Assembly: GCA_945787715.1 (NCBI GenBank)
Contig: CALZJE010000003.1
Location: forward strand, 6,088-70,087
Reading direction: 5' to 3'
Length of the DNA: 64,000 nt
Origin: an uncultured Ectothiorhodospiraceae bacterium
GTDB lineage: Bacteria > Pseudomonadota > Gammaproteobacteria > S012-40
Made by a program: the position numbers and the translations under genes. The notes beneath the pieces are model-generated. The model worked only from the letters and a program-made list of their open reading frames with translations, searched no databases and was not told where the DNA came from. Of this stretch, positions 4,423 through 31,096 are shown in pieces (position 1 is the stretch's first letter; the number at the start of each line of letters is the position of its first letter).

Positions 4423-4441
4423 AGACTTAAGCTGTTTAAGA

Positions 4442-5446: not shown

Positions 5447-5535
5447 TGTATTTCCTTAATTTTTAACAAAAGTCTTTTTTCTGCGGCGAATGATAGCAAA
5501 CTAATGCTCTAATTTCATTGTGTATGAATTGATAA

Positions 5536-6246
5536 TTAGAGAGTTGTTATTTTAGCCATCTCTTCTTCAATTTGGAATTCAACCAAATCATTTAGCTCGG
5601 TGGTAGTTTTTCCTATTGGATCAATCGCAGGAAGGATGGAAATGGTAATCGTACCAGGCTTCTTTAACATACTATGTTTTGGCCAAAACTCCCCAGCATT
5701 ATGCGCTACTGGTACAACTAATTGTCCAGTACTTACCGCGAGCCTCGCACCACCAGCTTTATACTTACCTCTTTTACCGGGAGTAATACGTGTTCCTTCT
5801 GGAAATAACACAACCCATCTTCCGTTTTTTAATCGGTTATCACCTTGTTCTATAATCTGCTCCATCGCCTTTTTCTTTGCTGATCTATCGATGGCAATAG
5901 GTTCTAACATTGCTAGTCCCCAGCCGAAAAAAGGAACACGTAATAACGCTTTTTTTAATACCCAGATCTGTTGTGGAAAAATAACTTGTAAAGCAAAAGT
6001 TTCCCATGTCGATTGATGTTTGCATAAGATGATGGATGCTTTAGCTGGAATATTTTCTTTTCCCTTTACTTTAAAGTCTAAATTACACACCTTTTTTAAA
6101 CACCAGATATTAAACCGTGCCCATTGTCGAATAAATGCATATCTCTTTTCGTAGGGAAGTGGAAAGGTCAATAACGAAGGAATTGAATACAATATAGCCG
6201 TTGTTACCATTATAAAAAAATATATATACGATTTTAATTTTTGCAT
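5536..6246 (-). CDS. plsC: 1-acyl-sn-glycerol-3-phosphate (lysophospholipid) acyltransferase
   Basis: N-terminal transmembrane segment, acyltransferase block I CKHQSTWETF (an HX4-type motif) and block III FPEGTR. Confidence 0.8.
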   Translation of the reverse strand: MQKLKSYIYFFIMVTTAILYSIPSLLTFPLPYEKRYAFIRQWARFNIWCLKKVCNLDFKVKGKENIPAKASIILCKHQSTWETFALQVIFPQQIWVLKKALLRVPFFGWGLAMLEPIAIDRSAKKKAMEQIIEQGDNRLKNGRWVVLFPEGTRITPGKRGKYKAGGARLAVSTGQLVVPVAHNAGEFWPKHSMLKKPGTITISILPAIDPIGKTTTELNDLVEFQIEEEMAKITTL

Positions 6247-9909: not shown

Positions 9910-11973
9910 CTAAGATAACTTGGATATATCAGCAATTCGAGAAAATTGTTGATAGAGTTTTGAAAGCATCGCCAAACGATTATTTCTCACAGCTTTGTTA
10001 TCCGTCATTACCATCACGTGATCAAAAAAATCATCTATTGATTCTTTAAGTTGAGACAACAACTTCAGCGCTTGATCATAATCTTGCTTTTCAACGAGTG
10101 AATTTACATCAGACTCTAGCTCAGTTAATCGAGAATAGAGAATATTTTCTTGTTCTCCTTCAAAAAGATCAACATTAACATCTGAAGGCAACTCTTCTTT
10201 ATTTTTACGCAATATATTACTAATTCTTTTATTCGCTGCGGCTAACGCTTCTGATTCTGGTGATTTTTCAAACAACGCTACCGAATTCATGCGCGCATCA
10301 AAGTTTGCAGGTATTGTTGGCCGTGCTGCTAAAACTGCTTCGAATACTTGTGGTCGATACCCTTGCTCGTGATAGTAACCTTTCAAGCGATCCATCATAA
10401 ACTCATAAACTACGCCAACAACTTCATTATTCTTCAACGAATATTGTTTCGCTACGATTGTTAGAAGCTTATCAAGATCAAGTAGCAATGACTTTTCAAT
10501 CATTATTCGCAATATTCCCAATGTCGCCCGTCTTAATGCAAATGGATCTTTATCACCAGTGGGGATTAGGCCAATAGAAAAAATTCCAACAAGCGTATCT
10601 AATTTATCCGCCAGAGAGACAATTTGCCCAACTTTTGATGGTGGCAAACTATCACCAGCAAAGCGAGGCATGTAGTGCTCTAAAATAGCTTCCGCAACCT
10701 CTGCATCTTCTTTATCGTGAAGTGCGTAATAGCGGCCCATTATTCCCTGTAATTCCGGGAATTCACCAACCATTTCTGTCATCAAATCACACTTTGAAAG
10801 TTCTGCAGCACGCACAACGTGTTTTTTATCGACGCCAAGCTGCTTAGCAATTGCTTCAGCAAGCCCCATCACCCGAGTCGTTTTGTCGTATAGCGTTCCT
10901 AATTTGTTCTGGAAAACAACTGTCTTTAATTTTTGTAATTCAGTATTGAGCGGTGTTTTTCTATCCGTATTCCAGAAAAAATCTGCATCACTTAACCGAG
11001 GATGAATAACTCGTTCATTACCCTGTTTAACGGTATCAGGATTTTTACTGTCAATATTTGAAACAGTGATAAAACACGGCAGCAATTCATCATCTTTAAT
11101 CACATGAAAATATTTTTGATGACTTTTCATCGCTGAAACCAAAGCTTCCGAAGGAATTTCTAAAAATTTCTCATCAAAATTTCCTAAAATTGCTTTTGGC
11201 CATTCCACAAGCCCTGTGACTTCATTGAGTAATGCTTCATCAATAACCGCTAAACCATTTACTTTGAGAGCAGCTTGTTCTACTTGCGCTTTAATGGCTG
11301 CTTTTCGTTTTTCAAAATTGGCTAGCACGTGACCATTAAGTTCCAACAACGATTCATAATCTGATGGATTCGGTAATTCGATCGGTTCAGGATAGTGGAA
11401 TCGATGTCCTTTGGTTGTTCTTCCCGCTTTTAATCCGAGTACTGAACAATCGACCACGTCGCTACCGAGCAACATCACTAACCAATGAACTGGTCTTACG
11501 AATTGAGTCTGGCTGTCTCCCCAACGCATGCGCTTTGGTATAGGCAATTTAGCCAGAGCTTCTTCCACCATTGACGGAAGAAGTTCTCTTGTCTCTTCAC
11601 CTTTCACAGTGCTTCTGAAAACTAGCCAGGCCCCTTTATCGGTATCTGCTTTTTCCAATTCGTCTACTGAAACGCCACATGAGCGAGCAAATCCTACTGC
11701 AGCAGGTGTAGGGCAACCGTCCTCTTTAAACGCAGCACTCACTGCAGGGCCTCTTCGTTCAACTTCTTTGTTTTCTTGTTTTAACAAAATAGAAGATATT
11801 TTCACCGCCAATCGCCTTGGGGATGCAAAATTTTCTACTTCACCAAAAGTAACACCAGCCTTTTCCAGACTTTCAACGAGATTGTCAGAAAATGTTTTTG
11901 ATAACTTCTCTAATGCTTTTGGTGGAAGTTCTTCGGTCCCCAATTCAACAAGAAAATCTGCTGTATTTGACAT
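9910..11973 (-). CDS. glyS: Glycine--tRNA ligase beta subunit
   Basis: 687 aa. N-terminus DFLVELGTEELPPKAL and SPRRLAV. The start overlaps the glyQ stop (TAATG). Confidence 0.95.
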   Translation of the reverse strand: MSNTADFLVELGTEELPPKALEKLSKTFSDNLVESLEKAGVTFGEVENFASPRRLAVKISSILLKQENKEVERRGPAVSAAFKEDGCPTPAAVGFARSCGVSVDELEKADTDKGAWLVFRSTVKGEETRELLPSMVEEALAKLPIPKRMRWGDSQTQFVRPVHWLVMLLGSDVVDCSVLGLKAGRTTKGHRFHYPEPIELPNPSDYESLLELNGHVLANFEKRKAAIKAQVEQAALKVNGLAVIDEALLNEVTGLVEWPKAILGNFDEKFLEIPSEALVSAMKSHQKYFHVIKDDELLPCFITVSNIDSKNPDTVKQGNERVIHPRLSDADFFWNTDRKTPLNTELQKLKTVVFQNKLGTLYDKTTRVMGLAEAIAKQLGVDKKHVVRAAELSKCDLMTEMVGEFPELQGIMGRYYALHDKEDAEVAEAILEHYMPRFAGDSLPPSKVGQIVSLADKLDTLVGIFSIGLIPTGDKDPFALRRATLGILRIMIEKSLLLDLDKLLTIVAKQYSLKNNEVVGVVYEFMMDRLKGYYHEQGYRPQVFEAVLAARPTIPANFDARMNSVALFEKSPESEALAAANKRISNILRKNKEELPSDVNVDLFEGEQENILYSRLTELESDVNSLVEKQDYDQALKLLSQLKESIDDFFDHVMVMTDNKAVRNNRLAMLSKLYQQFSRIADISKLS

Positions 11974-17303: not shown

Positions 17304-17422
17304 TCTATATTGGTGCTAATTGGTTTCTGCATGTGTTTTTTTAGTGCGCTTATTAATATTTACTATAATTTATAAACGGATTTTGTTAATTAAGCTATTG
17401 TTATAAATAAGTAATTGTGTAT

Positions 17423-17438
17423 TGGCATATGTAATGCT
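17423..17438 (+). promoter_or_regulatory. Sigma-54 (-24/-12) promoter of glnA
   Basis: TGGCAT-ATGTA-ATGCT with GG and GC exactly 12 nt apart, about 59 nt upstream of the glnA ATG. Confidence 0.7.
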
Positions 17439-17496
17439 TAAATAAACAAAATTAAAATTTTAAAGTGTCTCCAATTTTATTTTAAAGGGTGAGAAA

Positions 17497-20891: not shown

Positions 20892-22307
20892 ATGGCAAAA
20901 AAAGAACATATTTGGGTCATTGATGACGACAAATCAATTCGCTGGGTGTTAGAGCGTGCTTTAAGCAAAGCGGATATGGATGTTGATTGCTTTGAAAGCG
21001 CTTCAGGTATTCTCGATAAACTATCAAAAGGATTACCGGATGCGATAGTTTCGGATATTCGCATGCCAGGACAAGATGGTTTGGCGCTTCTTTCAGACAT
21101 TAATAAAGCTTATCCTGATCTCCCAGTAATCATTATGACGGCTCACTCCGATCTGGACAGTGCGGTATCGTCCTATGAAGGCGGTGCATTTGAATATTTG
21201 CCTAAACCCTTTGATGTTGACGATGCAGTTGATCTGGTAAGACGAGCAGTGGATCATAGTAGAAGTGCTACTACTAACGTCAGTGAACAAACTGAAGCTA
21301 CACAAACAGAAATTATTGGCGAAGCAGCAGCGATGCAGGAAGTGTTTCGAGCGATTGGGAGATTATCTCGTTCGAATATCACCGTTATGATAAATGGTGA
21401 ATCTGGGACGGGTAAGGAGCTTGTTGCGAGTGCACTTCATCGCCATAGTCCAAGAGCGTCTAATCCTTTTATCGCACTAAATACCGCTGCTATTCCAAAA
21501 GATTTATTGGAATCAGAACTATTTGGTCACGAAAGAGGTGCTTTTACTGGCGCGCAAACAACACGACGTGGCCGTTTTGAACAGGCTGATGGCGGAACAT
21601 TGTTTCTTGATGAAATTGGTGATATGCCCGCCGATTTACAAACTCGGCTTTTGCGGGTTTTAGCATCTGGAGAATTCTATCGGGTTGGTGGTCATGATCC
21701 CGTTAAAGTCAATGTTAGAATTATTGCAGCCACACACCAAGACCTGGAAGAGCGAGTAGGTAAAGGAAAATTCAGGGAAGACCTATTTCATCGTTTAAAT
21801 GTTATACGTATACATTTACCCGCCTTACGTGAAAGGCAAGAAGATATTCCACTATTGTTAAACTATTTTCTCGTTCGAGCAGCGAAGGAATTAAGTGTTG
21901 ATGTAAAAAGATTAAGGCCTGAAACTGCAAAGTTTTTGAGTCAGTTACAGTGGCCAGGTAATGTAAGACAGTTAGAAAATGTGTGCCGCTGGTTAACTGT
22001 GATGGCCCCAGGTCCTGAAATTCATGTAGAAGATCTTCCGGCGGAATTAAGAGAAGATGTGGTTAAAGCAAGCAGCAATTCTGATTGGGAAGGCGCTTTA
22101 AAGCTTTGGGCAAAAAGCAAGCTCTTGGCAGATGATCAAGGTATTATGGAGAATGCGACTCCCAGGTTCGAAAAAATATTGATAGAAGTTGCTTTAGCGC
22201 ATACCGCTGGGCGAAAACAGGAAGCTGCTAAATTGCTCGGAATTGGTAGAAATACACTGACGAGAAAGTTGAAAGAACTCAAAATAATTAGTGACGATGC
22301 AGCGTAA
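20892..22307 (+). CDS. ntrC: Nitrogen regulation response regulator NtrC (sigma-54 activator)
   Basis: Receiver domain (VIDDD..SDIRMPG..LPKP), AAA+ domain [14 protein letters not shown] loop, C-terminal Fis-type HTH. Confidence 0.93.
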
Positions 22308-22631
22308 CACTAGCTCCTGGCTATCTCCACTAACCGGTGAACTTGTACAGCAATCAAACCAATTCCTTGCACTCCAATCTCATACTCAACGGATCTTTTA
22401 AGATTTATCTTATCGGTTCCATTCCCGTATTAAACTTAGAAAAAAGTAGATTCATGAAATATACTCTGAGGGCTGTAACCCAACCCTTGTTTCGCCTAGC
22501 GATATGAAAAGCAATACTTTGTGTTTTTTTGATAGCCAGCTGCCTTTTCTAGGATAAGCCTAGAAAAATCAGTTGATCCGTGATTTAGCGCACAACCACT
22601 TGATTCACTTGGCAATATGAAAAGTATTTGA

Positions 22632-22648
22632 ATCACCAACCTGGTGAT
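22632..22648. promoter_or_regulatory. Perfect palindrome; enhancer (UAS) candidate
   Basis: ATCACCA-ACC-TGGTGAT, i.e. 7-3-7 with the same architecture as NtrC sites, located about 200 bp upstream of the sigma-54 promoter at 22837. Confidence 0.4.
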
Positions 22649-22736
22649 CATAAATATTTTCATTACGCCAATCAAACCGCACACTTGCATGCTAATTTCG
22701 CATCCAACAGATCTTTCTAGGTTAAACGTTTTTAGC

Positions 22737-22752
22737 GCGAAGTTTCCTTCGC
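22737..22752. promoter_or_regulatory. Second palindrome; enhancer (UAS) candidate
   Basis: GCGAAG-TTTC-CTTCGC, about 90 bp upstream of the -24 element. Related TTCGC motifs are at about 22707 (TTCGCATCC) and about 22790 (CTTCGCTTCGAA). Confidence 0.35.
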
Positions 22753-22836
22753 ATCAATTTACTTCATTATTCAAAAATACGAATCAATCTTCGCTTCGAA
22801 AACATTTAAGTCATTGTTTTATATATGTATTAATCT

Positions 22837-22852
22837 TGGCATTCATTCTGCT
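22837..22852 (+). promoter_or_regulatory. Sigma-54 (-24/-12) promoter of the five-gene cassette
   Basis: TGGCAT-TCATT-CTGCT with GG (22838-39) and GC (22850-51) 12 nt apart. It lies 56 nt upstream of ATG 22908, which has the SD AAAGGAG. Confidence 0.7.
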
Positions 22853-22907
22853 CCTATGCAAGAGATTAGTTTGATGTGATATTCAACCACGAATAAAGGA
22901 GAACAAC

Positions 22908-23627
22908 ATGCATGATTTAGATCAGACCCAACTCGATTATAGCCGTGCAGAGTTTGATGATGACGAGTTTGAGTTAGAAGGGGAGTTCGAAAATGATATG
23001 GCTGTGTCAGGTGCTGATGAATATGAGGATGAGGATGAGTTTGAAAGTGAATATGAGTTCGAATCCAACTTTGATGGAAACAGTCCTTTTAGTGAAGCAG
23101 AGGAAATGGAGCTTGCTGCGGAATTAATGGAAATTGCAGACGATGGGGAATTGGAATATTTTCTAGGTAGGCTGATTAAACGCGGCGCTCGACGGGTTGG
23201 TCGTAGGCTACGTAAACGTGTAGGTACACGGTTGAGAAAGGGGTTAAAAAGACTTGCTAAACGCGGTTTGAGATTCGCAGGTGGAGCTGTTGGTGGTGCG
23301 TTAGGTGGTCCTGTTGGAGCCGTGGTAGGACGAGCTGCGGGTCGTGGATTGGGAAAAGTGTTTGGACTTGAATTAGAAGGTATGAGTCTGGAAGACCAAG
23401 AGTTTGAAGCAGCGCGTCAATTTGTTCGGCTTGCAGGTGATGCTACCTCTACTGCAACAGCAATTCCCTCTTCTGTTAATGAAGAAGTTGTTGCTCACAA
23501 GGCGCTGAAAAGATCAGTGGTAAAATTTGCACCGGGACTCGCAGGTAAAACCAGACGCTCTGTTCGTGGAGAAAAATCTGGACGCTGGGTTCGTAAAGGT
23601 TCTAGCATCATTCTAATGGGTGTTTGA
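22908..23627 (+). CDS. Tripartite acidic / poly-cationic / glycine-zipper protein (candidate pro-toxin or pro-peptide)
   Basis: 239 aa. Residues 1-85 contain 35 D/E and one Arg (DEYEDEDEFESEYEFES). Residues 88-122 contain 18 R/K and no acidic residue (RLIKRGARRVGRRLRKRVGTRLRKGLKRLAKRGLR). Residues 123-153 contain 12 Gly (AGGAVGGALGGPVGAVVGRAAGRGLGKVFG). The tail is basic (..GRWVRKGSSIILMGV). Strong SD; first gene after the sigma-54 promoter. Confidence 0.7.
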   Translation: MHDLDQTQLDYSRAEFDDDEFELEGEFENDMAVSGADEYEDEDEFESEYEFESNFDGNSPFSEAEEMELAAELMEIADDGELEYFLGRLIKRGARRVGRRLRKRVGTRLRKGLKRLAKRGLRFAGGAVGGALGGPVGAVVGRAAGRGLGKVFGLELEGMSLEDQEFEAARQFVRLAGDATSTATAIPSSVNEEVVAHKALKRSVVKFAPGLAGKTRRSVRGEKSGRWVRKGSSIILMGV

Positions 23628-24946
23628 GTCCCATGACTACCCCGCTGGTACGACAAGTTCTGAGCAATGAGACTCAAGCACTGATGGCTCGTCTCAGAGG
23701 AATTAAGCCGTTTTCCTTACATGTGCCGATGGTTGCTGCCGCTGCTTTGCAAACTTCAGCTCAACAATTGATAGAGCAGCATATGCACAGGGTATTGTCG
23801 TCAGTCGCTCAGATGCTCGGAACATATGAAGACTGGTTAAATAGTGAGGCGGGGCGTCGAACCAAAGATGCCACTGCACAGCGACATCTAACACTGGTGA
23901 GATTGCGTTTCCATGCAGCATTGACGCAGTTTGATCTTTTTTCAGATGTACTTACTCAGCGTAGTGAACATGAGTTTGGTGTCTGGCTCGCTGGACTTGA
24001 TGCACTAGCAGTGGATGCATTAAAAATAGAAGGAAAATACTTCGAACTGCCAGGTGTCGCGTGTTATCTAGATCGAGGAATAGGTGCTGCTATTCGACGG
24101 GTACGTACACGCTTACCTGGCGGGCGTGAAAATCCTGTTGCTATAATTCGAGTTCCTCGTGAGCGGATGATTGGCTCAGGCATCGCTTCATCGTTGGTTC
24201 ATGAAGTCGGGCATCAGGGTGCTGCGTTGCTAAACCTTGTGGAATCATTACGAAAGGAATTGCAGAGAAAAATTCATTCTGACGGATCGCCGTGGCGTTT
24301 ATGGCAACAATGGATATCAGAAATCATTGCTGACTTTTGGTCTGTAGCGCAGATCGGTGTGGGTTCTACTTTGGGTTTAATGGGTGTTGTTAGCTTACCG
24401 CGTGCATTTGTATTTAGAATTAGTGAAGAGGATCCTCATCCTTCACCGTGGATACGAGTCATGTTGAGTGCATCGATTGGCCAAGCCCTTTATCCGGATT
24501 CTCAATGGCGTCGTCTTCGTGAAGTTTGGATGCGTCTTTATCCGCGCACAGGTATCGATCCGGAAAAGGAACAACTGTTTCAAGGTTTGGAAGCTACGAT
24601 ACAGGAGTTTGTTGAGTTATTAACTCAACATCGGCCACGAACACTAGAAGGGATATCATTGTTAGAAATTTTCCCTGTTTCAGATAGACAACCAGATCGG
24701 TTAAGAAACTTATATGGTCAATGGTCAGGGAGGTTTAACGCTTGGCGCACCTCGTCCCCGGCGTTAGCGTTTGCCGTTATCGGACAAGCACGCGCTGATG
24801 ATCGACTAAGTGTATCAGATGAATCGAATCTTATTAATAGACTATTAAACCATTGGGCATTCAATCGAAATGATTTAAATAATCAATGCGGATGTAGACC
24901 TAAGGCGAATGCATATTCAACTGCAGTTATATCTACTGCGTTATAA
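23624..24946 (+). CDS. Orphan HExxH (gluzincin-like) putative metallopeptidase
   Basis: 440 aa. SSLVHEVGHQG (H193-H197, nt 24200-24214) with a candidate third ligand E233 in WISEIIADFW. The TTG 23624 / ATG 23633 start overlaps or abuts the upstream stop, which suggests translational coupling. Confidence 0.55.
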   Translation: MSPMTTPLVRQVLSNETQALMARLRGIKPFSLHVPMVAAAALQTSAQQLIEQHMHRVLSSVAQMLGTYEDWLNSEAGRRTKDATAQRHLTLVRLRFHAALTQFDLFSDVLTQRSEHEFGVWLAGLDALAVDALKIEGKYFELPGVACYLDRGIGAAIRRVRTRLPGGRENPVAIIRVPRERMIGSGIASSLVHEVGHQGAALLNLVESLRKELQRKIHSDGSPWRLWQQWISEIIADFWSVAQIGVGSTLGLMGVVSLPRAFVFRISEEDPHPSPWIRVMLSASIGQALYPDSQWRRLREVWMRLYPRTGIDPEKEQLFQGLEATIQEFVELLTQHRPRTLEGISLLEIFPVSDRQPDRLRNLYGQWSGRFNAWRTSSPALAFAVIGQARADDRLSVSDESNLINRLLNHWAFNRNDLNNQCGCRPKANAYSTAVISTAL

Positions 24947-24957
24947 GGAGTCTTGTA

Positions 24958-26826
24958 ATGAAACAAATAGATAATATATCGATTATACAATCTCACCATG
25001 CCGTAGTGCCGGACGGTGCAGTTTCTCTACGCTTATCAGAGAACTATGTAGATGTAACAAAGTACACATATATTTGGCGTACTCCTGAATCGTTGGGTGA
25101 GTTTAATTATATTGATCAACCCAATGTTATATGGACCGCTCCATTAAAAGCAGCAGGTGTGGTAGAAATAAGCGTAGAGATTATGCCTAAAAGCGGACAG
25201 AGTGGAGGTAAGAAACGCAATACACGTGCTTCATCGGAAAATTCCACGGCTGAATCTACACATCTCGAAAATATAGAGACAATAATCATCTCAACTACGG
25301 TGGAAGTTACGCCAAATGCTTTGCCTTTAGATGTAGTTGGTGCGATTGGAGAAGGTGTTAAGGCTATCAAAGAGGGTCTACCCGGTCAGGAAATACGTTT
25401 GGAGCGACAATTTCCTGCGCTTACGCCTCAAAAATCATTGTGGGCTATTATTCGCGACCGTACCAATGCAATTTCATTTAACAATTACAAAGCATTTATC
25501 GACTCGATTATGTGTGGCGGTGATACCTATCACAGCAAACAGATTCCCCATGAAGTTAAAGAATATGTCAATTTTGATCCGAGTAAATTGCACTACCGAG
25601 GTACCGAGTCGTATGAGGTTTTACGAAAAGCGACAGAAGCATTTCTGATGCATGAAATTGGTGCTTTACCCACTCCCGTAAATGAATCTGAAAAATTTCC
25701 CTTAGCAGACCCTGCTGAACAAAAACGGCGTTTACCACAACTCGCGGGTTCAAATGACGAAGAAGTTCAAATGGAAATGGAAAGTAATCGAACTGAATAT
25801 TTAAAAACATTGGAAGACGAAAGTCGGACCTTTCCTTATTTTAAACTTATCCGCGATCGTTTAAGTGAGATACCCCTTAAACCTCCTGGCTCATCAGGAG
25901 AAGGATGTTATGGATTATTGCGTTCGCGAATTTCACCACCAATTTTACTAGAATTAATCTGGTCTTATTGGCACGAAGAAGGAGGTTTGGTGCAAACAAT
26001 GAAAGCCATTAATATGCGCTTTCAGAACCGTTTATATAATCCACGTAAAAATGGGAGCGATCCGTTGGCTAATCTTAACTTGGATCCGTTACGTCCTATG
26101 AGCAATATTATTTGGGGATATATTCAAAATGAGCACGAGCATTTAACGTTATCAAGACGCGCTTATGAATACGATCATCATTATGGATTCAGTATCGCCG
26201 GAAAGGCAGTACCCAAACTCAACTCTGCCGATAGCCGTACTAAATTTTTAGAGGCGTTTCACAGTCTTCTTCATCGTGCCTCGGTGTTTTACAAAGAGCA
26301 ATCTGATACAACTAAAGTACCCGATGGTTATCCGTTGCTAAATGGATTGAAGGAATGTCATTTGTTGCTGGCTGAAGGTGCACATAACCAATTTGGTGAT
26401 TTACCCTGGACAGCGCGTATTGAAATGCTCATCGAGCAATGGATGTTAGCGCGGCCAGAAACACGGAATTTTTTGAACCGACGAGTGATGGTGCCTTACT
26501 CAGAAGAGTGGATGCCAGCGGTTGATCAAATGAAAGACTTGCAAGGTTGGTCAGGTGGTACCGTGCGTCATTTTCGAGATCTAGGAACGTTCGGTGAACA
26601 AATCTTGTTGTCAGTACGTTATGGAGATTGGAGTGAAAATTTTAATGAAGATGAAGCCAAAATCTGGGCTCAGTATTGGCGACAGGAGATTCAAGGTTAT
26701 ATCAATGCGTATCGTTCAGTAACGAGTGTAGACTTGGGATCGGATGCAGATCTGGCAAATGCTACGCTATCTCGTCAACGATCGACTGCACCTGCCGAGT
26801 TATTGAAACAGCAAGGTACTCGTTGA
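24958..26826 (+). CDS. Large hypothetical protein, no recognisable domain
   Basis: 622-aa uninterrupted ORF with SD AAGGAG 7 nt upstream. An N-terminal ~75-aa beta-rich module and a Ser/Gly/Lys linker are followed by a Trp/His-rich helical body (LLELIWSYWHEEGGLVQTMKAINMRFQN). Confidence 0.6.
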   Translation: MKQIDNISIIQSHHAVVPDGAVSLRLSENYVDVTKYTYIWRTPESLGEFNYIDQPNVIWTAPLKAAGVVEISVEIMPKSGQSGGKKRNTRASSENSTAESTHLENIETIIISTTVEVTPNALPLDVVGAIGEGVKAIKEGLPGQEIRLERQFPALTPQKSLWAIIRDRTNAISFNNYKAFIDSIMCGGDTYHSKQIPHEVKEYVNFDPSKLHYRGTESYEVLRKATEAFLMHEIGALPTPVNESEKFPLADPAEQKRRLPQLAGSNDEEVQMEMESNRTEYLKTLEDESRTFPYFKLIRDRLSEIPLKPPGSSGEGCYGLLRSRISPPILLELIWSYWHEEGGLVQTMKAINMRFQNRLYNPRKNGSDPLANLNLDPLRPMSNIIWGYIQNEHEHLTLSRRAYEYDHHYGFSIAGKAVPKLNSADSRTKFLEAFHSLLHRASVFYKEQSDTTKVPDGYPLLNGLKECHLLLAEGAHNQFGDLPWTARIEMLIEQWMLARPETRNFLNRRVMVPYSEEWMPAVDQMKDLQGWSGGTVRHFRDLGTFGEQILLSVRYGDWSENFNEDEAKIWAQYWRQEIQGYINAYRSVTSVDLGSDADLANATLSRQRSTAPAELLKQQGTR

Positions 26827-26863
26827 TGCCCATGTTTCACCTCAACTCTTACTACTAGGAGGG

Positions 26864-27694
26864 ATGATAATGTTTGAAGATGGAGATTACGATGATTTAC
26901 GTGAGGAAAAGTTTCTGAACTGGCCAGAAAGGAACAGACCTCCACGCCTAAAAAGTCGGATTGCTGCCCTACATCGTTCTTATTCGCCTGATCCAGTAGG
27001 TCGGGTTCAGCGTAATAACTCAATACGATCAAAAGATGATATGGTGGAATTTAATTTTTCAGGTTTAGAAGTAGACGGATTTATTTCACGAGAGGTAGAA
27101 GATGAACAGTTTCTAAATTATTTATGGCCATTCTCATCAGATCCCAATATTGTGGATCGCACAGCTTATTCACCTAAGTCTAAGCGAAAGAAAATTCGAG
27201 ATATTGATACAGTTTATGCACTGGTTTTACATCAAGCAGGCTTTAGTCGTGGAAATGATCCTAAAAAATATAATAATGTGACTTCTCATTTTGTCATTAT
27301 GCCAAACGGAACTATTCTTCAACTCCACCCTTTGACTGCCTATTTATATTCTTCCAATGGGTTTAATCGGGGTAGTGTAGCTGTTGAATTTATCGGTAAT
27401 TTTCCTAGCGAGCGTGGCAGATGCTGGAAACCTGAAAAGTATGGTTGTAATCAGGTTTCAAACGATCAAATTGAGGCAGGTCGACAATTAATTAGATATT
27501 TAAGGAAAAAAATAGGGCTGACTCACGTGTTGGCGCACCGTCAATCGAGTGGTTCGAGAGGCAATGATCCGGGGCCAGACCTTTGGCACCAAGTTGGGCA
27601 ATGGGGTGTAAATAAGCTAGGGCTAAATGATGGGGGGCATGGTTTTAAAATTCAGTCGGGTAAGGCAATTCCTGATTCATGGCGTAAAACTTAG
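26864..27694 (+). CDS. N-acetylmuramoyl-L-alanine amidase, amidase_2 (AmpD/PGRP/T7-lysozyme) fold, no signal peptide
   Basis: YALVLHQAGFS (first His ligand), GSVAVEFIGNF, and LAHRQSSGSRGNDPGPDLW (His, then Asp 10 residues later, followed by DPGP). About 110 aa of unassigned N-terminal extension precede the domain. The likely start is ATG 26870, downstream of AGGAGG. Confidence 0.8.
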   Translation: MIMFEDGDYDDLREEKFLNWPERNRPPRLKSRIAALHRSYSPDPVGRVQRNNSIRSKDDMVEFNFSGLEVDGFISREVEDEQFLNYLWPFSSDPNIVDRTAYSPKSKRKKIRDIDTVYALVLHQAGFSRGNDPKKYNNVTSHFVIMPNGTILQLHPLTAYLYSSNGFNRGSVAVEFIGNFPSERGRCWKPEKYGCNQVSNDQIEAGRQLIRYLRKKIGLTHVLAHRQSSGSRGNDPGPDLWHQVGQWGVNKLGLNDGGHGFKIQSGKAIPDSWRKT

Positions 27695-27730
27695 ATCGAA
27701 AAACCATTAAATATAATCATTGAAGGAAAA

Positions 27731-28645
27731 TTGGTGAGAGATATGAGGTCTTATGAAGAACTAAGTAGAGTTTCCCATGAAAATGGCAAAGATAAAGAGT
27801 TTTATTATAAGTCGAAGGTTAGACCGGTTTCTAATTCTATGGGTGATTTTAGTCAACAGGAAATTGTTGACGATTTTGACGATAGAAAAAGACTTGGCAG
27901 TATCAAAGATACACCTTATAGGTGGATATGCATGCTGGATTTGCACACAAAAAGTGGATTATTTGGTGGGACTGGAGTACTCATTTCCCCCAGACACATT
28001 CTTACGGCTGGGCATAACCTAGATGGTTGTAATAAAGTAGTAGTGGTGCCTGGAATTAATGGTCGCTTCAAGCCATTTGGAAGTTACGAATCTACAACGA
28101 TGATTGCCCACGATAAATGGAAAAAACATAGAGACGATAATTTTGATATTGGCATGATAAAACTTTCCAAACCGGTTGGGAATCAAAGGTTTAATTCAAT
28201 AAAGGGAAATGTTCTGGGTCATTGGGGACATTCTGCTTTCGGAATGGGTACGAGAATTATACCATTTGTGCAGAGCAATCAATTAAACAAAAAAGCAAAT
28301 ATTGCTGGTTATCCAAGTGATAAAGGATTTACGCAGCTTTGGTGGGATGCGGGTAAAATTGTCAATACCGCGCCTGCCAAAGCATCAGGAGCAATCTATT
28401 ACACTATGGATACATGTGGTGCTCAAAGTGGAAGTCCAGTTTGGTTAAGAAGTAAAAGTTCAGGAGCAAGATTTTTAATTGCTATACATAGTGGTCCATG
28501 TTTATTAGATGGCTCAGATTGCAAAGAATTATCTGGAAAGCTTTGTCCCGGTAGTAGTTTACGTAAACCACACTCTTCTAATATGGGGGTATTTTTAACA
28601 GCGGGACTAATTAAGACGATTAGAAGTTGGATTCGCTCTATGTAA
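27731..28645 (+). CDS. S1B (V8-like, COG3591-type) trypsin-fold serine endopeptidase, no signal peptide
   Basis: Catalytic triad contexts ILTAGHNL (His), NFDIGMIKL (Asp) and DTCGAQSGSPVW (Ser, GxSGSPV as in V8/SspA). The likely start is ATG 27746. Confidence 0.8.
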   Translation: MVRDMRSYEELSRVSHENGKDKEFYYKSKVRPVSNSMGDFSQQEIVDDFDDRKRLGSIKDTPYRWICMLDLHTKSGLFGGTGVLISPRHILTAGHNLDGCNKVVVVPGINGRFKPFGSYESTTMIAHDKWKKHRDDNFDIGMIKLSKPVGNQRFNSIKGNVLGHWGHSAFGMGTRIIPFVQSNQLNKKANIAGYPSDKGFTQLWWDAGKIVNTAPAKASGAIYYTMDTCGAQSGSPVWLRSKSSGARFLIAIHSGPCLLDGSDCKELSGKLCPGSSLRKPHSSNMGVFLTAGLIKTIRSWIRSM

Positions 28646-28735
28646 TCGCTATTAGAAATAATACCAAACAAATTTGTTCAACGTTATAAGTATTAAAGGT
28701 TTCGATAACTAACAAGTAAGTGTATTAATGACAGT

Positions 28736-30085
28736 TTATGAATGATTTTCTTGTTGCTTGCGCAACTGTAGCGCTCGCGGCGTAATTTTTAATTGCTTTG
28801 CAATCTTCGCGGTAGAGCCATTATGTTCAGCCATAGCAACATCGATAGCAACATCGGCGGCAGCACTACTAATTTCTTTTAAGCCCACGCCCAGTGAGAG
28901 TGCTTTACGAACAGCGGCTTCAAGATCTCCACGGCGCCAGTCACTCGTTTCTCTTGTGATGTTTTGAAATTCATCGTGGGGTATATCACCGATCGTATAT
29001 TGGCCGTCGCAAACATGACGGCCTCGCATGCGTAAGCAAAGCTGTCGAAGATCACGAATATTACCAGGATAAGCACGATTAATGAGATGGTGCTGTACGG
29101 CTGAGTCGAGTTCTGGATTTATATCATTTTGATGACGGAGGAAATGTTTAGCTAACGATAGAATGTCTTCCTTACGTTGTGAAAGTGATGGCAGCGTAAC
29201 GGTCCAATCTGCGAGACGGTAATAAAGATCACGGCGAAAACGCCCTGCTTCAATTTCTTCTAATAAATTTCGATTTGTAGCGCAGACTAGTCTGAAATCG
29301 GTGTCATGCCATGTGTTGCCACCGACTCGTTTGTAACGTTTTTCTTGAAAAACGCGTAGCAGTTGCACTTGAAGATCCAATGGCAACTCGCCGACTTCGT
29401 CTAGAAATAAGACACCACCGTCGGCCCGCGAAAATGCTCCTTCACGTTGACTACCTGCTCCGGTAAAAGCACCGCGCTCGTGACCAAAAAATTCACTGCC
29501 AGATAGGCTTGGGACAATGGTGGCACAATCTACTATGCTAAGTTCCTGCTGACTACGCAGAGGATCTACGGAATGAATAACTTTTGCAGCGAGTTCTTTT
29601 CCTGTTCCCGTTTCACCGTTAATTAAAACTGCATAATCACTAAATCTCGCGGCTTCAACAATTTGCCTTAAGGCCATTAGCCAAGGTATGCTGTGGCCAA
29701 TGACGATATCTTGTATTTCTGGGGAATTAGTGATTTTATTTACTCTCTCCCAACGACGAAGACGTACTGCAATATGGTCAGCTGTTTTACCTTCGTTGTC
29801 CCATAAGACGACGTCACTCGCGCCAGCTTCAATCAAACGATATACATCGTTACTATTTAGGTAGTCTGGGTTTGTGGTTACTGCGATAACGCGCTGTTGG
29901 GTTCTACAAGAGAATTTAGAAATACAGCTATATACATTGTCATCGGCATGATCGAATACGATAATCGCGGCTTTCGCATTATCTTTTGTATCGTCAATAC
30001 AAAAAATCACGCCTCGATTAATGAGGATTTGATGGATCGAATCGCGATTCACTACACCCAAGCAATTTAGGACTGTCCGTGTCAT
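28736..30085 (-). CDS. Sigma-54-dependent transcriptional activator (bEBP) with atypical receiver-like N-domain
   Basis: AAA+ domain with GETGTGKE, an intact GAFTGA loop ([13 protein letters not shown]), Walker B LFLDEVGEL, and a C-terminal HTH (STAKIAKQLKITPRALQLR). The N-terminal ~120 aa are receiver-like, but VLWD replaces the K-P motif. Convergent with the cassette. Confidence 0.9.
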   Translation of the reverse strand: MTRTVLNCLGVVNRDSIHQILINRGVIFCIDDTKDNAKAAIIVFDHADDNVYSCISKFSCRTQQRVIAVTTNPDYLNSNDVYRLIEAGASDVVLWDNEGKTADHIAVRLRRWERVNKITNSPEIQDIVIGHSIPWLMALRQIVEAARFSDYAVLINGETGTGKELAAKVIHSVDPLRSQQELSIVDCATIVPSLSGSEFFGHERGAFTGAGSQREGAFSRADGGVLFLDEVGELPLDLQVQLLRVFQEKRYKRVGGNTWHDTDFRLVCATNRNLLEEIEAGRFRRDLYYRLADWTVTLPSLSQRKEDILSLAKHFLRHQNDINPELDSAVQHHLINRAYPGNIRDLRQLCLRMRGRHVCDGQYTIGDIPHDEFQNITRETSDWRRGDLEAAVRKALSLGVGLKEISSAAADVAIDVAMAEHNGSTAKIAKQLKITPRALQLRKQQENHS

Positions 30086-30631
30086 TTGCCACCTCTGGAT
30101 TCACACTGATTTTTTTGGGTATTACATTACCCATCTTATGTTTATTAGCTACCAGGTAATTACACAGAACCCACAAACCATGTAAATCTAGGGTGGTTAT
30201 TTCATTATGAAATTTGTTGAAGAAAGTCAATCAATCATTGAAATATTATTTATCATGGTAGAAAAAAGGTAAAACTTATAACTGTTTTTTTAAATATTGA
30301 TCAGCAATTCGTTACGATATGAAGTAATGTAGTGAAAATTACCAAAACTTAAAAACTGTGCAGTAGTTAGTACTAAACCATTGTTTTCTTAAAACTTACT
30401 TAAGACTATTTAAAGTGAGTTAATCAGAATGTCAGTAGTCGGATAATCCAATCTTCAAGTGTATTATTTCTCTTGCTGTATCCGGCAATTTAAACAACAA
30501 AATGTAGGCCAACACCGATATACATTGAAAGATATTAGATTCACCGCTTAGTTTCGTTTGATATTGGACAAGGCTATTATTTTTAAATTCTCATAATTAC
30601 GATATGATATTCATTTTTATGAATGTGAATT

Positions 30632-31096
30632 ATGTTTATCGTCGCTCTATACGAACCAGAAATCCCACCCAATACAGGAAATATTATTCGGCTTTGTTCA
30701 AATATCGGAGCTGAACTCCACTTGATAAAACCGCTGGGTTTTGATCTGGATGATAAAAAATTACGTCGAGCTGGATTGGACTATAGTGAGTGGGTGGATG
30801 TTAAAATCCACGAAAACTACGATACTTTTCTTGAGTCATTAGGCTCATCACGGATATTTGCATGTTCAACTCACGGTACTAAACGTTATACTGATATGAG
30901 CTATCGAGATGGGGATGTTTTTTTATTTGGGCCAGAGACTCGAGGTTTACCGAAAGAATTACGGTTGGATTTTCCACCAGATCAAGTGATAAAACTCCCT
31001 ATGGTGCCGAATAATCGAAGCCTGAATTTATCTAATGCAACTTCAATTATTTTATATGAAGCGTGGCGGCAGTTAGACTTTATAGGAGCAGAGTAA
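30632..31096 (+). CDS. trmL: tRNA (cytidine/uridine-2'-O-)-methyltransferase TrmL (SpoU family)
   Basis: 154 aa. ALYEPEIPPNTGNIIRLCSNIGAELHLIKPLGF and LFGPETRGLP. Confidence 0.88.
   Translation: MFIVALYEPEIPPNTGNIIRLCSNIGAELHLIKPLGFDLDDKKLRRAGLDYSEWVDVKIHENYDTFLESLGSSRIFACSTHGTKRYTDMSYRDGDVFLFGPETRGLPKELRLDFPPDQVIKLPMVPNNRSLNLSNATSIILYEAWRQLDFIGAE

Follow-up and report, generated by a model that had tools for sequence, protein, structure and literature searches.

We analyzed a 64,000-nucleotide stretch of DNA from an uncultured Ectothiorhodospiraceae bacterium (contig CALZJE010000003.1, positions 6,088 to 70,087; hereafter the window), focusing on the spacer at 22308–22907. This spacer is noncoding and separates ntrC, whose stop codon ends at 22307, from the ATG at 22908 of g1, the first gene of a six-gene cassette that includes g1–g5 and, convergent with them, the gene of a sigma-54 activator, or bacterial enhancer-binding protein (bEBP). 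Upstream the gene order is glnA, a DUF4124 gene, ntrB, and ntrC (20892–22307). An original prediction, made from the letters of the window, had described in the spacer a sigma-54 promoter, two palindromes, and a pair of unexplained direct repeats, and had proposed that NtrC and the cassette's own bEBP might both act there. A direct check of the sequence found every listed feature in its place: the perfect 7-3-7 palindrome ATCACCA-ACC-TGGTGAT at 22632–48, the perfect 6-4-6 palindrome GCGAAG-TTTC-CTTCGC at 22737–52, and the direct repeats ATATGAAAAG(C/T)A, which read ATATGAAAAGCA at 22502–13 and ATATGAAAAGTA at 22615–26. The features discussed below are collected in Table 1.

Table 1. Features of the spacer, the cassette, and the neighboring ntrB region, in window coordinates.
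Feature	Coordinates	Strand	Details
NtrC-type box CGCACTA-TAA-TGGTGCG (CGCACTATAATGGTGCG) before ntrB	19647–63		Genuine box; 3/14 mismatches
Insertion of 8.3 kb (control region and six-gene cassette)	22311–30592		Missing in three close relatives
MITE fragment, right half	22329–22402	+	nhmmer E = 1.1e-4, profile positions 79–164
MITE fragment, left half, with the first ATATGAAAAG repeat	22445–22512	+	nhmmer E = 5.3e-5, profile positions 15–69
Orphan MITE right-end inverted repeat	22537–22553		Terminal-repeat match, 2 mismatches
Full-length MITE, 166 bp	22558–22723	+	nhmmer E = 1.6e-40, profile positions 2–167
7-3-7 palindrome, apex of the MITE hairpin	22632–22648		Centre 22640, midpoint of the terminal inverted repeats
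UAS-A, distal dyad GCGAAG-TTTC-CTTCGC	22737–22752		Centre ~118 bp upstream of the putative start
UAS-B, proximal dyad ACGAAT-CAAT-CTTCGC	22779–22794		Centre ~76 bp upstream of the putative start
IHF-like site AAACAATGACTTA (tentative)	22807–22819	−	1 mismatch to WATCAANNNNTTR
Sigma-54 promoter TGGCATTCATTCTGCT (TGGCAT-N5-TCTGCT)	22837–52	+	GG 22838–39, GC 22850–51; GG-N10-GC
Ribosome-binding site AAGGAG and g1 ATG	22896–22910	+	AAAGGAGAAC-ACATGCATGAT, kept in L081
Cassette genes g1–g5	22908–28645	+	Open reading frames; Pfam, NCBIfam, and PADLOC searches
Cassette sigma-54 activator (bEBP)	28736–30085	−	AAA+ domain (Sigma54_activat E = 3e-56), GAFTGA loop, C-terminal helix-turn-helix (HTH)
MITE, miniature inverted-repeat transposable element; UAS, upstream activating sequence; L081, nearest cassette relative.

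Statistics computed within the window did not distinguish functional elements from incidental ones. Composition-matched shuffles of the 600 bp gave 0.37 perfect palindromes with arms of at least 7 nt and 1.4 with arms of at least 6 nt, against 2 and 5 observed, and these statistics alone make neither palindrome remarkable. Matches to the sigma-54 consensus with at most two mismatches were not enriched in the whole window (21 found, 32.5 expected). A scan of 21800–23400 against Rfam, with E up to 1, matched no RNA family; a terminator scan of 22000–23200 detected no intrinsic terminator between ntrC and the cassette; and the three sigma-70-like promoters matched in 22000–23200 are at chance level. 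As the within-window statistics were not discriminating, we separated real from incidental elements by comparison with other genomes.

For the cassette, we fetched 80 related loci, among which 73 have a g1-like first gene, and used 68 loci with a promoter for the counts of dyads. The nearest cassette relative, L081, is a metagenome contig with a g2 protein 72% identical to that of the window. For the surroundings of ntrC, we used three close relatives, L083, L084, and L085, whose NtrC proteins cluster with that of the window at 90% identity. We treat as observed the sequence features and how they are conserved, how many copies the repeat element described below has and that it is mobile, and where the insertion begins and ends; binding, the transcription start, sigma-54 dependence, and activity we infer from them.

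The −24/−12 element of the original prediction proved to be a genuine and conserved sigma-54 promoter. Compared with TGGCAC-N5-TTGCW, it has both doublets intact 10 nt apart and two mismatches at noncore positions, and it lies 56 nt from the ATG. We scanned the 250 nt before the first cassette gene, requiring intact GG and GC and allowing at most two mismatches, and found a comparable promoter in 66 of the 73 orthologous loci, from many phyla; the background, computed from the same loci per 250 nt per strand, was 0.05 per 250 nt. In the alignment with L081, TGGCATCTATTCTGCT stands in register with the TGGCATTCATTCTGCT of the window. Judged from the position of the element, transcription would start near 22863, about 12 nt downstream of the GC, with a leader of about 45 nt and a strong ribosome-binding site before the ATG. 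The presence of sigma-54 in the organism is implied by NtrC together with a conserved promoter similar to glnAp2 (17423–38).

Further evidence for a control region came from the dyads upstream of this promoter. The 6-4-6 palindrome (UAS-A) had been suggested as a binding site for the cassette's own activator, and it is indeed the sort of enhancer site that such a protein would be expected to use: its core, CGAA-N6-TTCG, was found at most 250 nt upstream of the promoter in all 68 loci, with 127 sites in total. This is a density of 7.5 per kb, in comparison with 0.054 per kb in 1.04 Mb of DNA flanking the loci, giving an enrichment of about 140-fold. The original prediction had also mentioned additional TTCGC repeats nearby, and one of these (22790) turned out to be the right arm of a second dyad that it had missed, UAS-B. 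The two dyads are spaced by 42 bp, equal to four helical turns, and the same 42 bp separate them in L081. Paired dyads were present in 59 of the 68 loci, and every pair was spaced by either 42 bp (41 loci) or 41 bp (18 loci). The family logo reads (G/C)CGAA(A/G)-N4-(C/T)TTCG(C), and the positions relative to the promoter, counted from the first base of the −24 element, form discrete classes at −99/−57, −88/−46, and about −167/−125. The dyads of the window belong to the commonest class, −99/−57; this and −88/−46, the two commonest classes with a short spacer, are 11 bp, or one helical turn, apart. Examined as an enhancer for a bEBP, the dyads fit in symmetry, pairing, helical phasing, and distance to the promoter. 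The window contains two further matches to CGAA-N6-TTCG outside the control region, at 10438 and 27185, which are probably fortuitous, about three being expected in 64 kb at the background density.

The alignment between the window and L081 consists of conserved islands in otherwise unalignable DNA: CGCGAAG....CTTCG, ACGAAT.....TTCGCTT, TAAnTCATTG, the promoter, and the ribosome-binding site with the start codon. UAS-A is 100 nt from the promoter in both sequences and differs in its 4-nt spacer, while the counterpart of UAS-B in L081 is ACGAAT-ACCG-TTTCGC; no alignment was found upstream of UAS-A. The TAAnTCATTG block overlaps with a sequence resembling a site for integration host factor (IHF), and IHF-like sites between dyad and promoter were found in 24 of the 68 loci against 6.4 expected. 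We only tentatively count the site of the window as a part of the control region. Most loci of the −167/−125 class have, some 52 nt before the −24 element, an IHF-like site of the form TTTCAAT-N3-TTA.

The candidate for binding the dyads is the activator encoded at the far end of the cassette. Its GAFTGA loop is intact in the translation, the match of its C-terminus to HTH_8 is weak, and it did not reach the cut-off of any named NCBIfam equivalog, those for PspF, RtcR, and NorR included. Residues 1–125 (28736–29110) form an N-terminal domain of about 125 amino acids with no match in Pfam, which is presumably signal sensing. An ortholog with 42–55% identity to the activator of the window is found at the far cassette end in about 40 of the 80 loci and is usually convergent with the cassette genes. 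Across 39 loci, the HTH consensus is GN-QRAA--LGVTDRALQ-RR, with the variant KITPRALQLRK in the window, and the recognition helix follows the conserved pattern (G/K)(V/I)T(D/P)RALQxR(R/K). As this helix is kept across 39 loci and the motif occurs in 68 of 68, the two fit a conserved recognition sequence, and co-occurrence and architecture together suggest that the activator binds the dyads.

The upstream part of the spacer has a different origin. The 7-3-7 palindrome and the direct repeats lie in a miniature inverted-repeat transposable element (MITE), of which the spacer contains one full-length copy and two fragments. These are the three places in the window hit by nhmmer with a profile built from 107 metagenomic copies without that of the window. 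The terminal inverted repeats of the full copy, CCTAGAAAAATCAGTTG and CAACAGATCTTTCTAGG, have 17-nt arms at 22559–75 and 22705–21, and a nested inverted repeat has 30-nt arms at 22609–38 and 22642–71; the 171 nt at 22555–22725 are predicted to fold into a single long hairpin of −26.4 kcal/mol (z = −5.4). A 26-nt direct repeat joins 22486–22511 with 22599–22624, and the second ATATGAAAAG repeat is within the full copy; the repeats that the original prediction had left unexplained are thus MITE-internal sequence. By these matches, most of 22311–22723 is MITE sequence, and we regard this part of the spacer as transposon debris. Two small open reading frames in the spacer (22337–22507 on the plus strand and 22496–22690 on the minus strand) fall inside MITE sequence, and for that reason we did not accept them as genes.

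Scanning metagenomes with a 22-base degenerate core of the element, we found at least 120 matching stretches on many contigs and in many unrelated intergenic contexts, and some of the contigs are syntenic with the window at 78–87% nucleotide identity. Among the matches listed, 108 were distinct full copies, whose alignment runs from CCTAGAAAAA...CAGTTGATCC to ...TTCTAGG, with similarity lost beyond these ends. The element occurs in size classes of 163, 182, and 201 bp. Perfect 5-bp AT-rich target duplications flank 48 of the 65 complete copies used for this count (6.1 expected), and the copy of the window retains 3 of the 5 bp (ATAAG/TTAAA). Insertion polymorphism was seen in two comparisons. 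In L084, a homologous segment of about 200 nt occupies an unrelated site, the spacer upstream of glyQ, where L083 and L085 have no insertion; the intergenic regions are too diverged for reading its target duplication by comparing filled and empty sites. In L157, with 84–87% nucleotide identity to the window, a MITE of about 160 bp is found at 5511–5671, and the corresponding site of the window, around 4434–4439, is empty, which indicates that the element has been mobile since the two lineages diverged. The MITE matches no Rfam family and appears to be specific to this low-G+C gammaproteobacterial lineage. Otherwise it is like other bacterial MITEs and palindromic intergenic repeats (Correia, ERIC, RUP, and BOX/REP-type elements): it is short (163–201 bp), noncoding, and intergenic, has terminal inverted repeats, 5-bp AT-rich target duplications, more than 100 copies, and insertion polymorphism, and folds as one hairpin.

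The identity of the 7-3-7 palindrome as the MITE apex bears directly on its proposed role as an NtrC site. If phosphorylated NtrC bound there, at about −223, and co-activated the promoter with the cassette activator, the cassette would be coupled to nitrogen status. The 7-N3-7 geometry speaks for this, as do the position of ntrC immediately upstream and the agreement with the NtrC consensus, which amounts to 10 of the 14 specified bases, inner CACCA/TGGTG included, rather than the half stated in the original prediction. However, matches of equal quality, with 4/14 mismatches, occur 21 times in the window, and shuffles give about 14. The E. coli NtrC box determined by genomic SELEX (systematic evolution of ligands by exponential enrichment) is (T)GCA(CC)A-N3-T(GG)TGC(A), in which conservation is high for GCAnnA and TnnTGC (PMC8743547), and the palindrome has T for the conserved G2 and A for the conserved C16. 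The same bases are invariant in the lineage to which the window belongs: the sites upstream of glnA and ntrB have GTGC/GCAC in all four genomes, in contrast to the GTGA/TCAC of the palindrome. The palindrome is also a single site, and known NtrC enhancers use paired sites. The apex of the MITE family reads TTCACC-AACCA-GGTGAA, and the T that creates a 7-N3-7 form with TGGTG occurs in the window copy only, when this is compared with the 108 distinct metagenomic copies listed. Finally, none of the other cassette control regions compared, that of L081 included, contains the palindrome. Conservation in orthologous loci, which the original prediction had named as a check, thus holds for the core of the 6-4-6 palindrome in every locus and for the 7-3-7 palindrome in none. 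We therefore consider it highly improbable that NtrC and the cassette's own bEBP are integrated at this promoter: the NtrC-like palindrome belongs to the MITE and not to the cassette. The second suggestion of the original prediction, that both palindromes are sites for the cassette's activator, was supported for the 6-4-6 dyad and not for the 7-3-7. Two perfect dyads do lie upstream of one promoter, but their sequences are unrelated, with TCACCA and GCGAAG half-sites and spacers of 3 and 4 nt; the enhancer motif of the family is CGAA-N6-TTCG, and UAS-B already fills the place of the second site. With the 7-3-7 palindrome belonging to a MITE that is not conserved with the cassette, a shared role is extremely improbable.

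Neighboring sequences show what NtrC sites look like in this lineage. The site before ntrB with which the original prediction had compared the palindrome is present and is a genuine NtrC-type box, and its GCAC...GTGC is invariant in the four related genomes. The box, CGCACTATAATGGTGCG, which has equivalents in L083, L084, and L085, holds a TATAAT hexamer; one would expect such an arrangement if NtrC autorepressed an ntrB promoter, as at glnL of E. coli. Upstream of glnA (17304–17440), two conserved half-sites of the TTGGTGC type, separated by about 32 bp, are accompanied by a sigma-54 promoter that is conserved as well, TGGCATATGTAATGCT (17423–38); this arrangement is similar to glnAp2 and common to the four genomes.

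The adjacency to ntrC itself can be traced to an insertion. Homology in blastn with L083 and L085 ends at 22310 and resumes with L083 at 30593, and G+C is 0.41–0.48 inside these boundaries in comparison with 0.35–0.40 outside. In two of the three relatives, the gene directly after ntrC is that of the SpoU-type methylase (at 30632 in the window), and in the third, L085, other genes stand there. As L083, L084, and L085 differ after ntrC, the junction following this gene is a hot spot of insertions and rearrangement. The spacer between ntrC and the methylase gene is 350 nt in L083 and contains a different long palindromic element, ctttggccagcgctttaggcttgaag...cttcaagcttacagctttggccaaaggccaaa (11530–11650); in L084 it is only 37 nt. 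The cassette does lie directly downstream of ntrC, as originally noted, but the regulatory meaning given to this did not hold, three relatives having no cassette there. We read the adjacency as recent and accidental and as having no regulatory meaning, and this, too, argues against dual input.

Taken together, the spacer is likely to be a composite, with a sigma-54 control region of about 170 bp (22737–22907) preceded by transposon debris, in front of a horizontally acquired cassette. In the mechanism that we propose, dimers of the activator would bind UAS-A and UAS-B on the same face of the helix and assemble into an active AAA+ oligomer, which would contact the promoter-bound sigma-54 holoenzyme by DNA looping. 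The short AT-rich spacer between UAS-B and the promoter, with its possible IHF site, may be part of this arrangement. Use of ATP would then open the promoter and allow transcription of g1–g5. The cassette and its switch would have entered the spacer between ntrC and the methylase gene by horizontal transfer. The full MITE ends 13 bp before UAS-A, so that the sequence required by the promoter would reach no further upstream than this point, consistent with the DNA beyond it being dispensable. Several points weigh against this explanation. UAS-B is an imperfect dyad whose left arm fits the GCGAAG half-site at four of six positions; the promoter of the window has two non-consensus positions (TGGCAT, TCTGCT); our simple scan gave no promoter in 7 of the 73 loci; and the activator gene was outside the fetched flank in about half of the loci.

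Further alternatives concern the function of the MITE and the identity of the protein on the dyads. The MITE could have been co-opted, its hairpin or hairpins stopping or processing read-through from glnA-ntrBC, or the element acting on the enhancer as a spacer or bent DNA. This is compatible with the composite control region but unlikely. In its favor, the scan detected no intrinsic terminator between ntrC and the cassette, the hairpin is very stable and only 13 bp from UAS-A, and REP, ERIC, Correia, and similar small palindromic repeats are known to influence termination or the stability of mRNA. MITEs can also carry or create regulatory sites, and the presence of one is in itself compatible with an effect on expression, a further point against our main explanation. 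On the other hand, the hairpin is not followed by a T-run, other cassette loci work without any such element, and its copies sit in many unrelated intergenic contexts. As the binding of the dyads is deduced from sequence, one can also conceive of another binder, for instance a repressor, with the activator acting from elsewhere or from solution, in the way of some bEBPs that have no DNA-binding domain. We regard this as very unlikely: the recognition helix of the activator shows a cross-phylum conservation that parallels that of the motif, the pairing of sites four helical turns apart at 45–230 bp upstream of a sigma-54 promoter matches the architecture of an enhancer, and no other regulator gene accompanies the cassette in the loci compared.

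The architecture of the control region is textbook sigma-54 biology and will not surprise a specialist. It resembles glnAp2 with its NtrC sites in E. coli and Salmonella in having a −24/−12 promoter and two same-face dyads about 70–120 bp upstream of the start, and the activators are alike in their AAA+ domain, GAFTGA loop, and C-terminal Fis-type HTH. The cassette sites are CGAA-N6-TTCG and not GCAC-N7-GTGC, however, and they are spaced by 41–42 bp in contrast to about 32 bp for NtrC sites; the cassette activator furthermore has the N-terminal domain of about 125 amino acids with no match in Pfam, and its target genes are not those of nitrogen assimilation. Dedicated modules of the PspF/psp type are similar in that one activator stands beside one operon, with an enhancer at most about 130 bp from the promoter and IHF-like sites. 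They differ in that the cassette activator is below the PspF equivalog cut-off and the IHF site of the window is only a match with one mismatch. In the literature, of which our coverage was incomplete, we found nothing specific on the cassette, on its enhancer motif with pairing at 41–42 bp, or on links between MITEs and sigma-54.

The genes behind this promoter have little similarity to characterized families. The g1 protein (22908–23627; 239 amino acids) is acidic in its N-terminal third, after which come a stretch rich in Arg and Lys and a GxxxG-like segment rich in Gly, a layout that resembles a pro-region neutralizing a cationic peptide. In many loci, the g1 that abuts g2 is preceded by a promoter-proximal gene similar to g1, the start of which is about 700 nt further upstream (e.g., 6537–7148 in L002; 6574 and 7282 in L020), which suggests tandem paralogs. 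The g2 protein (440 amino acids) carries an invariant HEVGHQ motif of the HExxH type; g3 has 622 amino acids; g4 encodes an Amidase_2 cell-wall amidase and g5 a trypsin-like peptidase. No match was found for g1–g3 in Pfam, NCBIfam, or PADLOC or, by sequence searches of the PDB, for g2 (profile) and g3, and an exact-sequence look-up of the g2 protein (P0001) returned no contig on record. Homologs of g2 are nevertheless numerous: 5431 of the 8000 candidates scored had an E-value of 1e-3 or better, typically with about 55% identity. Species-representative genomes contain 558 confirmed cassette loci in many phyla, with carriers including Nitrosomonas, Competibacteraceae, Accumulibacter, Methylococcales, Janthinobacterium, and Variovorax as well as Acidobacteria, Chloroflexi, Planctomycetes, Verrucomicrobia, and Nitrospira. 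The core g1-g2-g3 was constant in all 80 fetched loci, and the accessory genes (Amidase_2, trypsin-like peptidase) varied; the activator is the only regulator gene that travels with the cassette in the loci compared. Because g1 combines an acidic pro-region with a cationic glycine-zipper-like segment, g2 has an HExxH motif, and a trypsin-like peptidase and a peptidoglycan amidase are frequent companions, one may speculate from protein composition that the cassette represents a new type of system, a tightly gated, protease-activated module attacking membranes or cell walls and serving in regulated self-lysis, antibacterial attack, or anti-phage suicide. We hold this to be a doubtful proposal; if true, the two-dyad enhancer grammar would provide a handle for finding the inducing signal and the regulon of the cassette.

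Our results remove a tempting but wrong link from NtrC and nitrogen control to the cassette and illustrate that a perfect palindrome with the geometry of a transcription-factor site can be the tip of a mobile repeat. Comparison across genomes told the two palindromes apart where statistics within the window could not. What probably travels with the uncharacterized cassette through many phyla is a compact module of about 170 bp, made of two dyads, an optional IHF site, and a sigma-54 promoter, and with it the regulation of the cassette can be tested directly and its regulon computed across hundreds of genomes.

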